Below, piece by piece: positions 22,742 through 27,715 of a DNA stretch of 64,000 nucleotides (its first letter is position 1; each line of letters begins with the position of its first letter). The DNA lies in assembly GCA_965218095.1 (NCBI GenBank), contig OZ244587.1, positions 2,560,001-2,624,000 of the forward strand. The letters are read 5' to 3'. The notes under the pieces were generated by a model that was not told the origin of the DNA, searched no databases, and was given only the letters and a program-made list of their open reading frames with translations. Origin of the DNA: Candidatus Poribacteria bacterium (GTDB taxonomy: Bacteria; Poribacteria; WGA-4E; PCPOR2b). A program made the translations under genes and the position numbers.

Positions 22742-23311
22742 ATGTCTAACCACCAATCCAGTCCTATTTACACTATCGGTTACGGCAGCCGTTCCATCGA
22801 ACGGTTTGTCGAGGTTCTGCGACAATATGAGGTCGCCTACCTGATCGACGTGCGTTCCGCGCCCTATTCGCGCTACAAGCCGGAATTTTCCCAAGCGGAG
22901 CTGGCTGACGAACTGCAACACCATGGGTTTCGCTATGTATTCATGGGCGACACACTAGGCGGCCGGCCCGACGACGAGAATTGTTACGTGAACGGGGTGG
23001 TGGACTACGAAAAGGTGAAGGCCACTGCGCTCTACGAGAACGGGATTAAACGTCTCCAAACCGCTTTCTCTCAAGGACAATGCGTCGTCCTCATGTGCAG
23101 CGAGGGAAAACCGGAGAACTGTCACCGGAGCAAGCTCATCGGAACCACACTGGTGGGTCTGGACATACCGGTGATTCACATCGATGAAAATGACGAACTG
23201 CGGATGCAGGATGAAGTCATCGATCGGCTAACCAGCGGTCAACTTTCTCTGTTTGGTGAACACACATTCCACTCGTGCAAAAAGTACGAGCGAAAAGAAG
23301 ATGAAACTTAA
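22742..23311 (+). CDS. DUF488 family protein (1)
   Basis: IYTIGYG, LIDVRSAPYS, LGGRP, LMCSE...CHRS. Confidence 0.9.
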   Translation: MSNHQSSPIYTIGYGSRSIERFVEVLRQYEVAYLIDVRSAPYSRYKPEFSQAELADELQHHGFRYVFMGDTLGGRPDDENCYVNGVVDYEKVKATALYENGIKRLQTAFSQGQCVVLMCSEGKPENCHRSKLIGTTLVGLDIPVIHIDENDELRMQDEVIDRLTSGQLSLFGEHTFHSCKKYERKEDET

Positions 23312-23795
23312 AATTGTCACCATTGGTGTGTACGGATTTGATGAAGCCGGTTTCTTCCGGGCGCTGCAGGATGCAAAGGTGGACACCTTCTGTGACATCC
23401 GGCAGCGACGCGGCGTGCGCGGGGCGGCATACGCCTTCGTCAATAGCCAGCGTTTACAGGGACGATTGGCTGAATTGGGCATCCATTACCTGCATCGCAA
23501 GGACCTGGCGCCAACGAAATCGGTACGTGAGGTGCAAGCCGAGGCGGATAAGGTTAAGAAAACTGCTAAACGCCAGCGCACGAAGTTGGGTGAGGCGTTC
23601 ATTGAGGCGTACCAAACCGAGTGCCTGACGCACTTCAAGCCACAAAGCCTGCTGGACGACCTGGAGCCGGACGCACGGGTCGTGGCACTCTTTTGTGTTG
23701 AACGGGAACCGGGGGCTTGCCACCGGTCGCTGGTGGCGGAGGTGATAGAGAAAAAACTGAATCTGGACGTGGAGCATATCGTGCCAGCGTCATGA
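23301..23795 (+). CDS. DUF488 family protein (2), overlapping the upstream gene
   Basis: IVTIGVYG, FCDIRQRRGVRG, LAPT, LFCVE...CHRS. Confidence 0.85.
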   Translation: MKLKIVTIGVYGFDEAGFFRALQDAKVDTFCDIRQRRGVRGAAYAFVNSQRLQGRLAELGIHYLHRKDLAPTKSVREVQAEADKVKKTAKRQRTKLGEAFIEAYQTECLTHFKPQSLLDDLEPDARVVALFCVEREPGACHRSLVAEVIEKKLNLDVEHIVPAS

Positions 23796-23888
23796 GTTGC
23801 TGTATTTTACTCGATTCTGTTTTGTGTCAAAGGCAAAAACGGCAAGAATGCCGTATTTTTCAGTTATTACGGGAATCCACCTTAAAGC

Positions 23889-24410
23889 ATGGTCATTGTC
23901 GAAACGGAGCGACTGGTCCTCAGGCAGTTTCGCCTCTCCGAATACGCGATAAATTGCGTATTCGGAGATCCGGAAGTGATGCGTTTTGGAGACGGTGTCC
24001 AGACTCCCGAATGGGTTCACGACTAGCTCTGCCGTTATCTTGAGAACTATCGGCAGAAGTCGGGAATCGGGCCGTGGGCAGTAGTCGAGAAGATCAATAC
24101 GGAAGCGATTGGCTATTGTGGCCTGTTTTATTTTCCTGACGTGTGCGGCCAACCGGAAACGGAGATCGGCTACCGGTTGGCGCGGCCCTATTGGGGGCGT
24201 GGTTACGCGACAGAATCGGCACGGGCTGTCCGCGACTATGCACTTAACACCCTGCGTTTGCCGCGATTGATTGCGATGATTGATCCATAGAATGCCGCCT
24301 CGATTCACGTAGCGGAGAAACTTGGCATGCATTACGAAAAGGACGTGATGTTTGAAGGCTATACCCATCCAGACCGCGTGTACGTGATTGAGCGCGCAGA
24401 AAGTGGATAA
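23889..24410 (+). pseudogene. GNAT (RimJ/RimL-like) acetyltransferase with two in-frame TAG stops; absent from the ORF track
   Basis: Manual translation: MVIVETERLVLR...HD*LC...EIGYRLARPYWGRGYATESA...IDP*NAASIHVAEKLGM. Confidence 0.85.
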
Positions 24411-24835
24411 CAAAGCGGTACATAAGGAGTAATCATGTTACTACAAGAGCTCCATATGTTGGAACCACCTTGTCAGCTCTTGCTGCTGCCGCAGCATTTG
24501 TAGTTTCAGTAATTCTGCGCAGACGAGACGAGCGACGATAGGAGATCCGCGATTGGCAACGGTAGAATGTTCTGTCATTGTCCGCCGTTTGGGACGCATT
24601 GGGCCGCAGCTATAAGCAGAGGTCGATCGGCTTCTTCGGGTGGTTTTGGCATTGTAGCAAAGAGGAAATCGGCGTGTCACGACAAAAACTTGCCTATAAC
24701 CAGGCGTTGCAGTTGACGGTCCGATTCTCGGGCGAGCGCGGCAGTTTGTTGGTTTTTCGTTCGTTAGTACACGGGGTATGCGGTCGCGTGAAACGTTCAC
24801 ACGAGACAAGCGAAATTTTCACCATGAGGTCCGCT

Positions 24836-27715
24836 ATGAGGGTCCTGATTGTCGCCAAGACGCGCATGAGCAAGGGGGCGTGTATCGGCGGAATCACGCA
24901 GGATGGTCAAAGTGTTCGGCTGATTTCGGCGGATACTGACGCTCACGACAGCGCGGGCCGGGAGTATGAAGTCGGCGAGGTCTGGGAAGTTGAAGCTAAA
25001 CTGGCGGCTGATGTGATTCCACCGCACATAGAAAATATCGTCGTTTACAAAAAGCACAAGCTTCACACCCTCGAAGGCCCAGTCGCCATCATCGAACGAT
25101 TCATGTCCTCCAAAGTAGGCGGACCCGAGGTGCTCTACGAAGGTCTGACCCAATTCACGCCTACCGGTGCACTATACACCGCCGAAAGGACTGGCATCCC
25201 GCCTTACAGTACCATGTTCTGGCGACCCGATAAATCGCTAACACTCGACACGGCTGGCAAGCGCATCCGCTATCGCTATCCGACTGAAGATGGGGGCCGC
25301 ACCCTCACTTTCGTTGGCTTCCAGGAGCCGCTCAAGACGCTACCGGCAGGGACGTTGCTGCGCGTTTCGCTGGCTCACTGGTGGCGACCCGACGAAGGTA
25401 CTGACAGTGAGTATCGCTGCTTTGTACAGCTTTCGGGCTGGTTTCTGGAGGAAATCGGCAATCAAGTTGAGCAAAGCAAAATCCCGCCAAGCGGGGCAAT
25501 TAAGCAAATCCCCAATCCGCAATCAGTTGAACTGCCCACCACAGATTCCACGTCACCCCAACACCTGCTCAAAACCGTCTTCGGCTACGACGAATTTCGG
25601 CCGTTGCAGAAAGAGATCATTGACAACATCCTGGGTCAACGCGACACCTTGATTATCATGCCCACCGGCGGCGGCAAGTCATTGTGCTACCAACTGCCCG
25701 CACTACGCTTCGACGGTCTGACCGTCGTCGTGTCACCGCTCATTTCACTCATGCAGGACCAGGTGACGCAGTTGCAACAGTTGGGCACCCCTGCCGTTTA
25801 CCTCAACAGCACGCTCAATCACCGCGAATACCTTGCAACTGCCAACCGGATCAGAGGCGGCGCGGTGAAACTGCTCTACATCGCGCCGGAAACGCTCCTG
25901 CGCCCCGAAACATTGCTCATGCTCGACCGGTGTCGGCTGGACTGCTTGGCAATTGACGAAGCCCACTGTATTTCTCAGTGGGGGCACGATTTTCGCCCGG
26001 AATATCGCCAACTCGTGTCTGTGCGCGAGCGATTCCCTCACGCTGTGTGTGTTGCCCTCACTGCTACGGCAACGCCCCGCGTTCAAGCTGACATCAACGA
26101 TACGTTAGGTTTCCGCGACGAGAACAAGTTCATCGCCAGCTTTGATCGGGGAAACCTCTTTATCGCTGTTGAGCCGAAGACAGATTTACTCCGGCAGACC
26201 TTCGATTTCCTCGCCGCCCATCCCGACCAGTCGGGCATCATCTACTGTGCGACGCAACGGCAAGTAGATTCGCTGCACGCAGCACTGGTGGAGCATGGTA
26301 TCTCCGCGGCGCCCTACCATGCCGGACTGGAGGGCGAAACCCGCGAGCGCAACCAGACCGCTTTTATCCGCGACGACGTGCGGGTCATGGTTGCGACGAT
26401 TGCCTTTGGTATGGGCATCGACAAGCCGGATGTGCGCTTCGTGCTGCATGTGGATTTGCCCAAGGATATTGAATGCTACTACCAGGAAATCGGTCGCGCC
26501 GGGCGGGACGGTCTTCGGGCTGATTGTCTCCTGCTGTTCAGTTTTGGCGACGCAGGCACAATTCAACACTTCATCCAACAGGGTGCGGCGTCTGAGCGTA
26601 AGGGACGGGATGCACGTTTGCAGGCTCTGGTGGACTGGGCGACGTCGGGGGACTGCCGTCGCAGCGGACTGCTGACCTATTTCGGGGAGGTGTATGAAGC
26701 TGAAAACTGCCAGATGTGCGACAACTGTCTCAAGGGAGAAGGTGAACGGGTTGACCTCACCATTCCAGCTCAGAAATTTCTCTCATGCGTCGCGCGGACA
26801 GGCCAGATTTTCGGCATAAATCATATTATCAAGGTGCTGCGTGGTTCGCAGGCCAAAGAGGTGTTGGCGCATGAGCATAACAAGCTCTCAACTTATGGTA
26901 TCGGCAAAGCGTATTCCGCCGAACAGTGGAAACTCTTGGCGCAGCAGTTCATCCAGCAGAAACTCCTTGCGTGGGATATGAACTATGGGAGCGTTAAATT
27001 GATGAAGAAAGGGCGGGCTGTCCTCAAGGGAGAGACGGTGTGGGGTGAGCCGATAGAAACGTCAACGTATACCACATCCGGCGAGACCGCCGGATACAAC
27101 CTGGGACTCTTCGAGCAACTGCGCGCCAAGCGTAAAAAACTTGCCGACGCTGAAGGTGTCCCGCCGTACATGATTTTCTCCGACCGCGCCTTGCAGGAGA
27201 TGGCGACCTATTGCCCCCACTCGGTTGGGGCGTTTGAAAGGATGCACGGCGTTGGTGGTGTAAAAATTGAAAAATACGCTGAGGTCTTCTTACCAATCAT
27301 CCGTACCTACTGCCAGGAACATAGGCTGACGGAAAAAGCGAAATCAGCGCCTCGTTCAGTGAGTCCCTCAATACCCTCCAAATCTCGCAGCCGGGAAGTC
27401 GGAGAACGGTTTCAGGCCGGAGAATCGATTGCCGAACTGATGCAAGTCTATAGGGTGAAGCGTCAGAGGATTATATCGCACCTGAGCACGTATGCGCAGG
27501 GGGAAAATCCGTTACCGGTGGCGCGCCTACGTGCCGAGTCTCAATTGTCAGCGGAGATACAAAATCGCGTGCTGGCGACTTTTGACGAACTGAATACGCC
27601 CTTCCTACGTCCAGTTTTCGATGCTTTTGGCGAAACTGTCAGTTATGAAGAGTTGCACCTGATGCGGGTGATTTATTGGTCGCAAACTCTCGCTAGTTCT
27701 ACTGCGACATCTTAG
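24836..27715 (+). CDS. recQ: RecQ helicase with an extra ~210-aa N-terminal domain (dual-OB-like), RQC, HRDC and a C-terminal HTH
   Basis: [42 protein letters not shown]...[21 protein letters not shown]-terminus [22 protein letters not shown] gaggt. Confidence 0.93.

Follow-up and report, generated by a model that had tools for sequence, protein, structure and literature searches.

We investigated a three-gene module in a stretch of 64,000 nucleotides from the genome of a Candidatus Poribacteria bacterium (assembly GCA_965218095.1, contig OZ244587.1, positions 2,560,001 to 2,624,000), hereafter called the window. The module comprises two genes of the DUF488 family, termed DUF488_1 and DUF488_2, and a gene for a RecQ helicase that bears an additional N-terminal domain of tandem OB folds, DuOB. 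With moderate confidence, we regard the module as one DNA-processing unit that acts on replication-associated DNA and has a role in end processing, and we favor such replication-linked end processing over anti-phage defence. The trio as such is already known, being the RecQ-fused branch of a widespread three- or four-part module that has been catalogued computationally, as the Pfam families DuOB (PF22557) and DUF488-N3a (PF22751) and as the PADLOC candidate PDC-M45.

In the mechanism that we propose, the DuOB domain would hold single-stranded DNA or a 3' end, and RecQ would unwind the DNA in the 3'-to-5' direction. The DUF488 pair would perform cysteine-dependent phosphoryl-type chemistry on a nucleic-acid terminus, either cleaning or marking the end, and a beta-clamp-binding peptide in the tail of DUF488_1 would bring this protein to primer-template junctions. 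The gene content, the identity of the domains, their predicted folds, the conserved linkage, the domain fusions and the conserved tail motif come directly from our analysis. We infer that the proteins form a complex, that the DUF488 pair has this kind of substrate and chemistry, and that the role lies in repair; the binding to the clamp is taken from a structural model.

All three genes lie on the plus strand. DUF488_1 (22742-23311, 189 aa) matches PF04343 at E 1.9e-22 with 80.6 bits, and DUF488_2 (23301-23795, 164 aa) matches the same family at E 1.3e-13 with 52.0 bits, the cut-off being 22.2 bits. The two genes overlap by 11 nt, the ATG of DUF488_2 lying inside DUF488_1, and the RecQ fusion gene (24836-27715, 959 aa) follows on the same strand after a gap of 1040 nt. 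The window genome is a single contig of 6.35 Mb with a completeness of 93.9% and belongs to a sponge-symbiont Candidatus Poribacteria bacterium. The original prediction had described two overlapping and mutually divergent DUF488 genes that both retain D-x-R and C-x-E...C-H-R motifs, followed on the same strand by a RecQ with a C-terminal helix-turn-helix, and had called the trio intact amid decayed XisI, GNAT and EAL neighbours. This description agrees with our analysis throughout, as detailed below, and all three genes are full length in comparison with their homologues with their motifs kept.

Linkage and fusions of the module

We scanned one genome per species for the DuOB domain and kept the best 80 loci from 149 relatives. 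A RecQ-like sequence directly followed DuOB in all 80 loci, and in 75 of them both DUF488 genes lay immediately upstream, with order and strand unchanged. Conservation of the DUF488 adjacency across taxa, which the original prediction had proposed as a check, was thus borne out in loci titled Poribacteria, Latescibacterota, Chloroflexota, Verrucomicrobiota, Planctomycetota, Methylomirabilota and Acidobacteriota, i.e., about seven phyla. Five loci were without DUF488_1, four of which end at a contig edge within 600 nt. At locus L077, 8 kb of upstream sequence is present and truly devoid of DUF488 genes. A 4-nt overlap joins the end of DUF488_2 to the start of DuOB in 44 of 77 loci. The median gap is -4 nt and the maximum 681 nt, so the 1040 nt of the window is the largest gap among the 78 (77 related loci and the window).

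The strongest argument for a joint action of the four parts comes from gene fusions. A profile search with DUF488_1 in a large protein collection returned 11,843 cluster representatives at E <= 0.001, including 1158 at E <= 1e-30, and we scanned 14 among the 150 representatives listed with Pfam. All five long representatives (895-950 aa) turned out to combine, in one chain, DUF488 and an entire RecQ including RQC, HRDC and HTH_40 domains, a partial one of 301 aa contained DUF488 and the start of a DEAD domain, and two DUF488 domains were found in one chain in four of the 14. The DuOB::RecQ arrangement accounted for 958 clusters in the large protein collection (527-1679 aa band, E <= 1e-5). PF22557 and RecQ domains were both present in all 120 clusters listed of the 958, and those named by their source were called RecQ. 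The DUF488-RecQ, DUF488-DUF488 and DuOB::RecQ fusions thus link all four parts irrespective of gene order.

We also inferred a FastTree tree from the window protein and 63 complete fusions of at least 800 aa, with 17 loci having shorter or cut open reading frames (ORFs) omitted. The tree is nearly phylum-coherent, with 6 label changes compared with a minimum of 5 and a shuffled mean of 29.1, the labels being the submitters' own. The window copy belongs to a five-member group (support 93) containing two Acidobacteriota copies, one from Latescibacterota and one other from Poribacteria, and this group is sister to the main Poribacteria clade of 24 members. A Pfam scan of 63 proteins encoded beside the module in 12 diverse loci and in the window gave mostly metabolic or housekeeping functions and no shared synteny. 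DuOB was found in none of 50,697 phage records and in one of 72,556 plasmid records, namely pRMAR01 of Rhodothermus marinus. The matches of DUF488_1 in phage records were no more than distant (27% identity, eight actinophage records).

The original prediction had held that a fusion serving as the lineage's sole housekeeping RecQ would speak against a specialized system. In the window genome, no match but the fusion indeed spans the whole recQ model. Another RecQ-family helicase, of 633 aa, has DEAD, Helicase_C and distal Zn-binding domains and is without RQC and HRDC. DuOB was found in 24 of 41 related genomes, adjoining a RecQ match in 21 of the 24 by coordinate comparison; the other three correspond to a stand-alone cassette and two partial remnants. 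RecQ matches past model position 400 occur in 20 of the 41 genomes and every one is a DuOB fusion, the remaining RecQ matches ending at model position 358 or earlier. The 17 genomes without a DuOB match, which include single-contig genomes 95-99% complete, have core-only helicases only, and thus the fusion is not essential. For five genomes from other phyla, the best RecQ match was always the fusion; a second long RecQ is present in two of them and absent from three. The fusion is therefore the only classical RecQ where it is present in this order, yet it is dispensable among relatives, so that the objection stands in part. That it is the sole full-length RecQ pushes the interpretation toward repair rather than defence.

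The fusion protein, the DUF488 pair and a clamp-binding-like peptide

The DuOB domain at the N-terminus of the fusion protein (24836-25441, plus strand) matches PF22557 over profile positions 1-210 of 210 at E 1.1e-23 with 84.9 bits (cut-off 27; 89.5 bits on the genome). Its AlphaFold2 model is all-beta, with a pLDDT of 86.4 and a pTM of 0.84. The dual-OB resemblance, which the original prediction had suggested and proposed to check by a structural search of RecQ residues 1-210, is substantiated by this full-length match as well as by Foldseek and VIA-align, which both returned OB folds. The best Foldseek matches were tandem-OB HIN-200 domains (E 1.1e-5, probability 1.0, TM only 0.35-0.40), followed by Teb1, TEBP-alpha, RPA70 and POT1. 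In VIA-align against 48,161 chains, the first barrel matched the OB folds of RPA, SSB, PriB and MCM at Z 6-7.7, which is middling on the tool's own scale, and the matches of DuOB were uniformly OB-fold nucleic-acid binders. RPA70 could be aligned to DuOB over 160 residues at Z 6.5. In the structural model, residues 1-210 of the RecQ fusion are two OB barrels.

The RecQ helicase proper (25559-27307, plus strand) consists of DEAD, Helicase_C, RecQ_Zn_bind, RQC and HRDC domains as assigned with Pfam and TIGR01389. Each of the five Pfam domains exceeds its cut-off, and the Walker A motif PTGGGKS and a DEAH motif can be read in the translation. Against the TIGR01389 equivalog, the protein scores 706.6 bits (708.9 on the genome; cut-off 640.2) over positions 2-590 of 591. 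The predicted activity of a RecQ is that of an ATP-dependent 3'-5' DNA helicase. The C-terminal HTH_40 domain (27410-27667, plus strand; PF14493, E 2.8e-10) occupies residues 945-1030 of the 1045-aa open frame. The nearest relatives (L022-L029) have this domain too, but most other Poribacteria copies lack it. The open frame extends from 24578 to 27715, leaving 86 codons (24578-24835) open 5' of the ATG at 24836, which is the start backed by homologues. The public collection lists the identical protein at 1013 aa (P0002), a length that probably reflects a start placed too far 5'.

The helicase core, Zn-binding, RQC and HRDC domains are shared with E. coli RecQ (TIGR01389), whereas the N-terminal tandem OB folds, the C-terminal HTH_40 and the two linked DUF488 genes are not. 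E. coli RecQ recruits free SSB via its winged-helix domain.

DUF488_1 and DUF488_2 are old divergent paralogues. BLASTP aligned only 36 residues of the two proteins at 36% identity, and hhalign aligned 150 columns with 97.7% probability and 22% identity. The active-site motifs, D36-x-R38 and C119-S-E121...C127-H-R129 in DUF488_1 and D32-x-R34 and C132-V-E134...C140-H-R142 in DUF488_2, are invariant columns in alignments of 55 and 54 homologues, respectively. Both proteins look catalytically competent because these motifs are kept and invariant among homologues. With the DUF488-N3a model (cut-off 27 bits), DUF488_2 is a marginal pass at 29.0 bits, which together with the full-length DuOB match likens the module to the Pfam pair of DuOB and DUF488-N3a, whereas DUF488_1 lies below the cut-off at 17.2 bits. 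NCBIfam has no model for either protein, and sequence searches of PDB chains gave nothing meaningful, with best E values of 0.04 for DUF488_1, 0.35 for DUF488_2 and 0.12 for DuOB.

The AlphaFold2 model of DUF488_1 has a pLDDT of 91.2. Its top Foldseek matches are nearly all cysteine-dependent phosphatases, such as PRL-1, plant PFA-DSP, MKP5, Cdc14 and RNA 5'-phosphatases (2c46_B at rank 10 and 1yn9_C at rank 13), with probabilities of 0.97-1.0, a best E of 1.2e-3 and TM of 0.4-0.5. Burroughs and Aravind reportedly placed, in 2023, a clade of RapZ-C, DUF488 and DUF4326 in the Rhodanese-phosphatase superfamily, and they are said to have predicted DNA-end processing in conflict systems as well as activities on RNA termini and NAD-derived groups. 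The model of DUF488_1 is consistent with a placement in this superfamily but does not prove it, and the reported prediction of DNA-end processing accords with that of the original prediction. A phosphatase-like model also fits the cysteine-dependent end chemistry of the original prediction, which is a predicted activity.

The tail of DUF488_1 contains a beta-clamp-binding-like peptide, G166-Q-L-S-L-F-G172 (23237-23257, plus strand), followed by a conserved F-x-S-R/C-K-K-Y; the C-terminal end reads ...RLTSGQLSLFGEHTFHSCKKY.... Beta-clamp binders with a QL[SD]LF motif include Pol III alpha, Pol II, UmuC, MutS and Hda. In DUF488_1, Q167 and F171 are invariant in the 55 homologues, and 55 of 75 tails fit the pattern Q-[LIVM]-x-[LIVM]-[FLWY], the rest being mostly QPSLF or QQSLF. 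Among 150 diverse DUF488_1-like representatives listed, 139 keep the active-site motif; 67 of these 139 have Q-x-x-[LMF]-F within 90 residues past it, and 24 have the strict form. In the cassette on the Rhodothermus marinus plasmid, the first DUF488 ends with GQLNLFG. Of the 8017 ORFs in the window genome that are at least 120 aa long, 11 contain the strict motif Q-[LM]-[SDN]-L-F. Eight of the 11 were scanned with Pfam and proved to be DnaE, an AlkB-like oxygenase, a PLD-SNF2 helicase, an enolase-like protein and four without a family. The genome's own DnaE has GQMNLFG right behind its HhH domain.

Other carriers of such motifs were also observed. The AlkB-like 2OG-Fe(II) oxygenase is encoded in the window (61234-61875, minus strand; PF13532, E 2.1e-26), and this enzyme of a DNA-repair type has a clamp-binding-like motif at its very N-terminus, MAQLDLFT. 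The protein combining a PLD nuclease with an SNF2-type helicase (G000:C1:5317635-5320970, minus strand; L136; 1110 aa) has GEQLSLFEN past Helicase_C and is a candidate clamp-motif protein. The Y-family polymerase PF00817, sought for comparison of clamp motifs, had no match in the 93.9% complete genome; in a control search, the family was found in 10 of 14 control genomes.

We modelled a complex of the genome's own DnaN dimer (alignment of 31 sequences) with residues 150-189 of DUF488_1. The complex scored 0.66, 0.66 and 0.65 in three runs, compared with 0.00 for the best of three controls. Of 157 solved complexes, 116 reach this mark of 0.66, as do 2 of 215 mismatched pairs. The runs share at least 85% of their contacts, with a partner pLDDT of at least 52, and residues 165-171 of DUF488_1 contact DnaN residues 170-175, 241, 246, 319, 343-345 and 359-364, which form the canonical cleft. 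The model supports binding of the DUF488_1 tail in the beta-clamp cleft. Like the known clamp-binding proteins, DUF488_1 has a conserved GQLSLFG that is modelled in the DnaN cleft and resembles the peptide of DnaE. Unlike the clamp-binding consensus, position 2 varies among relatives of DUF488_1 (P, Q and others), and the tail is modelled at a pLDDT of about 85 and not as disordered, so the motif may not be accessible.

The window copy and its surroundings

The only plus-strand promoter candidate within 22400-24900 lies 5' of DUF488_1 (22652-22681). It is sigma-70-like, with TTGTGA, an 18-nt spacer and TATAAT with a TG, and agrees with the consensus at 10 of 12 positions as a pattern match only. 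Rfam at gathering thresholds gave no match inside 22400-28200. Near-identical contigs (0-5 differences each) covering the module were found in three metatranscriptome runs of one study. These contigs from RNA libraries span DUF488_1, the DUF488_1/DUF488_2 junction, DUF488_2 into the GNAT pseudogene described below, 24532-24876 into the start of RecQ, the DuOB region and the RecQ C-terminus. All three genes and two of the junctions are covered in this way. The stretches free of contigs, namely 21700-22583, parts of the RecQ core and a bridge over 24465-24532, are uninformative in the contig data. A terminator-like hairpin (24481-24496) lies in the unbridged stretch 24465-24532. On the minus strand, a promoter-like site at 24680-24651 (GTGACA, 18-nt spacer, TACAAT with a TG) faces a 45-codon ORF (24578-24441), which is antisense to the spacer 5' of RecQ and has no Pfam match.

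The neighbours of the module are decayed. Directly 5' of DUF488_1 lies an XisI fragment (22402-22650, plus strand) that covers profile positions 40-92 of 110, and directly 3' of RecQ lies an EAL remnant (27926-28060, plus strand) consisting of the last 32 of 236 profile positions at E 9.5e-8. Between DUF488_2 and RecQ, we found a pseudogene of a GNAT acetyltransferase of the Acetyltransf_3 family (23889-24410, plus strand) with in-frame TAG codons at 24024 and 24288; the piece between them, 24027-24287, matches PF13302 at E 6.3e-20. The GNAT gene, now a pseudogene, was inserted into the operon and is no functional part of the module. The 1040-nt gap between DUF488_2 and RecQ is explained by this insertion. 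The GNAT insert was also found with identical sequence in a DNA run. A repeat search over 22400-25000 gave short chance-like pairs only and no target-site duplication flanking the insert. Further upstream, a gene for an NAD-dependent epimerase/dehydratase (19788-20906, minus strand) is broken by an in-frame TAG at 20486 and a TAA at 20123, with no frameshift. These nonsense stops, like the TAG pair of the GNAT pseudogene, suggest local decay by point mutations rather than indels. We also considered reassignment of TAG as the cause of the stops in the neighbours and rejected it, since the epimerase gene also has an in-frame TAA and the genes of the module end normally.

In the related locus L031 (5645-7506), an insertion of about 1.5 kb interrupts the first DUF488 gene. 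Insertions into the operon thus recur. The window copy is an ordinary member of its family, notable only for its intactness amid decay and for the insertion that splits it.

Elsewhere in the window, a gene for the SelB elongation factor (14034-16118, plus strand) is followed by a tRNA-Sec (RF01852, 76.6 bits), indicating that the genome has the selenocysteine machinery. RNA domains of a group II intron are located at 38400-39120 on the plus strand (RF02012, 35.6 bits; RF00029, 67 bits).

Known systems and competing explanations

A closely similar catalogued system is PDC-M45 of PADLOC. Its B component is matched by DUF488_1 (PDC-M45B, E 1.8e-50) and its C component by DUF488_2 (PDC-M45C, E 1.5e-12), and the module shares with PDC-M45 a DuOB protein (A) and two divergent DUF488 proteins in the order B, then C. 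In contrast to PDC-M45, the DuOB of the window is the N-terminal domain of a full RecQ. Neither this DuOB alone nor residues 1-295 matched any of the four PDC-M45A models even at E <= 1. A related genome (G008) contains a stand-alone DUF488-DUF488-DuOB cassette (L010, 1489-3344, minus strand) in which DuOB is broken by an in-frame TAG, and this cassette matches B at E 1.1e-57, C at 1.1e-55 and A at 2.1e-16. For PDC-M45C, DUF488_2 of the window scores 45.6 bits versus 185 for the stand-alone form. By these matches, PDC-M45 is the stand-alone form, and the window copy represents a divergent, RecQ-fused branch. PADLOC would probably not call the window locus because A is unmatched and C is weak.

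The candidates of the PDC type are 145 predictions, chosen for their embedding in BREX, DISARM and type I restriction-modification (RM) systems according to Payne et al. (bioRxiv 10.1101/2024.01.29.577857). PDC-M45 is not named in the main text of that preprint. Our literature search found no paper joining DUF488 with RecQ and none naming PDC-M45; DuOB as a whole word occurred only in unrelated papers, and among the DUF488 papers listed none concerns the module, judged by title. The original prediction spoke of an uncharacterised system. The function is indeed only predicted, but the system had already been catalogued as Pfam families and as a PADLOC candidate.

Anti-phage defence of the PDC-M45 type is the first rival to be weighed, and we consider it rather unlikely. 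In this scenario, DuOB::RecQ would sense or unwind invading or replicating phage DNA and the DUF488 pair would modify or block its ends. The PADLOC matches of the two DUF488 proteins and of the relative's stand-alone DuOB speak for it, as does the manner in which the PDCs were chosen (bioRxiv 10.1101/2024.01.29.577857); the entries themselves are predictions, however, PDC-M45 is not named in the main text of Payne et al., and the DuOB of the window matches no PDC-M45A model. On plasmid pRMAR01 of the cultured R. marinus DSM 4252 (L141, 3911-7684), cas1-cas2-cas6 come immediately after the stand-alone cassette and an SSB gene precedes it, and among the 12 diverse loci an N6_N4 DNA methylase adjoins the module in two and an MrfA-like helicase in one. 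Nevertheless, no defence island was seen around the window or the 12 loci. The patchy distribution among the 41 relatives and the several broken copies would suit a defence system, whereas the fusion tree follows the phyla and DuOB matched none of the phage records and a single plasmid record. The equivalog-level RecQ, the sole full-length one in the genome, also argues against defence, and the clamp-type tail, as modelled, would point to host replication.

At the opposite end, the fusion could be a plain housekeeping RecQ and the DUF488 genes unrelated neighbours with a function of their own. The fusion scores above the recQ equivalog cut-off, no other full-length RecQ was found in the genome, its relatives are annotated plainly as RecQ by their sources, and 1040 nt separate it from the DUF488 pair here. 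We nevertheless judge this explanation improbable in view of the adjacency across phyla, the 4-nt stop/start overlap in over half of the loci compared, the direct DUF488-RecQ fusions in all five long representatives, and the 17 relatives that have core-only RecQ-family helicases only. Equally improbable in our opinion is an action on RNA or RNA-DNA hybrids such as primers, e.g., the removal of a 5'-triphosphate or a 2',3'-cyclic phosphate. The RNA 5'-phosphatases in the Foldseek list of DUF488_1 would agree with it, as would the activities on RNA termini and NAD-derived groups that Burroughs and Aravind reportedly predicted, and OB folds bind RNA as well as DNA. On the other hand, a RecQ with RQC and HRDC is a DNA helicase, the clamp-type motif would direct the module to DNA junctions according to the model, and no RNA-repair genes were seen in the flanks of the 12 loci and the window.

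Several observations weigh against replication-linked end processing as well. The stand-alone cassette is a PADLOC defence candidate whose R. marinus copy adjoins cas1-cas2, and the N6_N4 methylases at two loci point in the same direction. The module is dispensable, given its presence in 24 of 41 relatives, and broken or split copies occur among relatives (G018 with an in-frame TAG, G007, L033, L063, L022 and L053). The 80 loci are close relatives with 57-75% identity in DuOB, a sample biased to the subfamily of the window. The contigs from RNA libraries give neither strand nor level, and carry-over of DNA is possible. The Foldseek matches of DUF488_1 are weak, with none at E <= 0.001. As for the clamp, complexes of clamp and peptide have already been solved, so that the pass of our model may reflect memory or likeness; the modelling also used our own alignments, and our case is unlike those of the calibration set. 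The tail, with its pLDDT of about 85 in the monomer model, contains a helix (156-163) and a strand (177-181), and the motif could accordingly be a structural or intra-complex element.

Our analysis adds to the catalogued module that PDC-M45A is DuOB, with the fused DuOB escaping the models, that DUF488 occurs in fusions with RecQ and with a second DUF488, and that, within this order, a full-length RecQ is found in the fused form only. It also adds a controlled model of clamp binding and the GNAT insertion splitting the window copy. The RecQ-fused form ties the DuOB-DUF488 cassette, a defence candidate, to a well-understood DNA helicase. Support for this tie comes from the DUF488-RecQ and DUF488-DUF488 fusions, and the conserved clamp-type peptide links the cassette to the replication clamp. 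As a tentative extension, the DUF488-DuOB modules including PDC-M45 might be beta-clamp-tethered end-processing enzymes working with RecQ at forks or gaps, and not immune systems. If this extension holds, it would provide a first function for the large DUF488 family and a bacterial RecQ equipped with its own RPA-like handle for single-stranded DNA.

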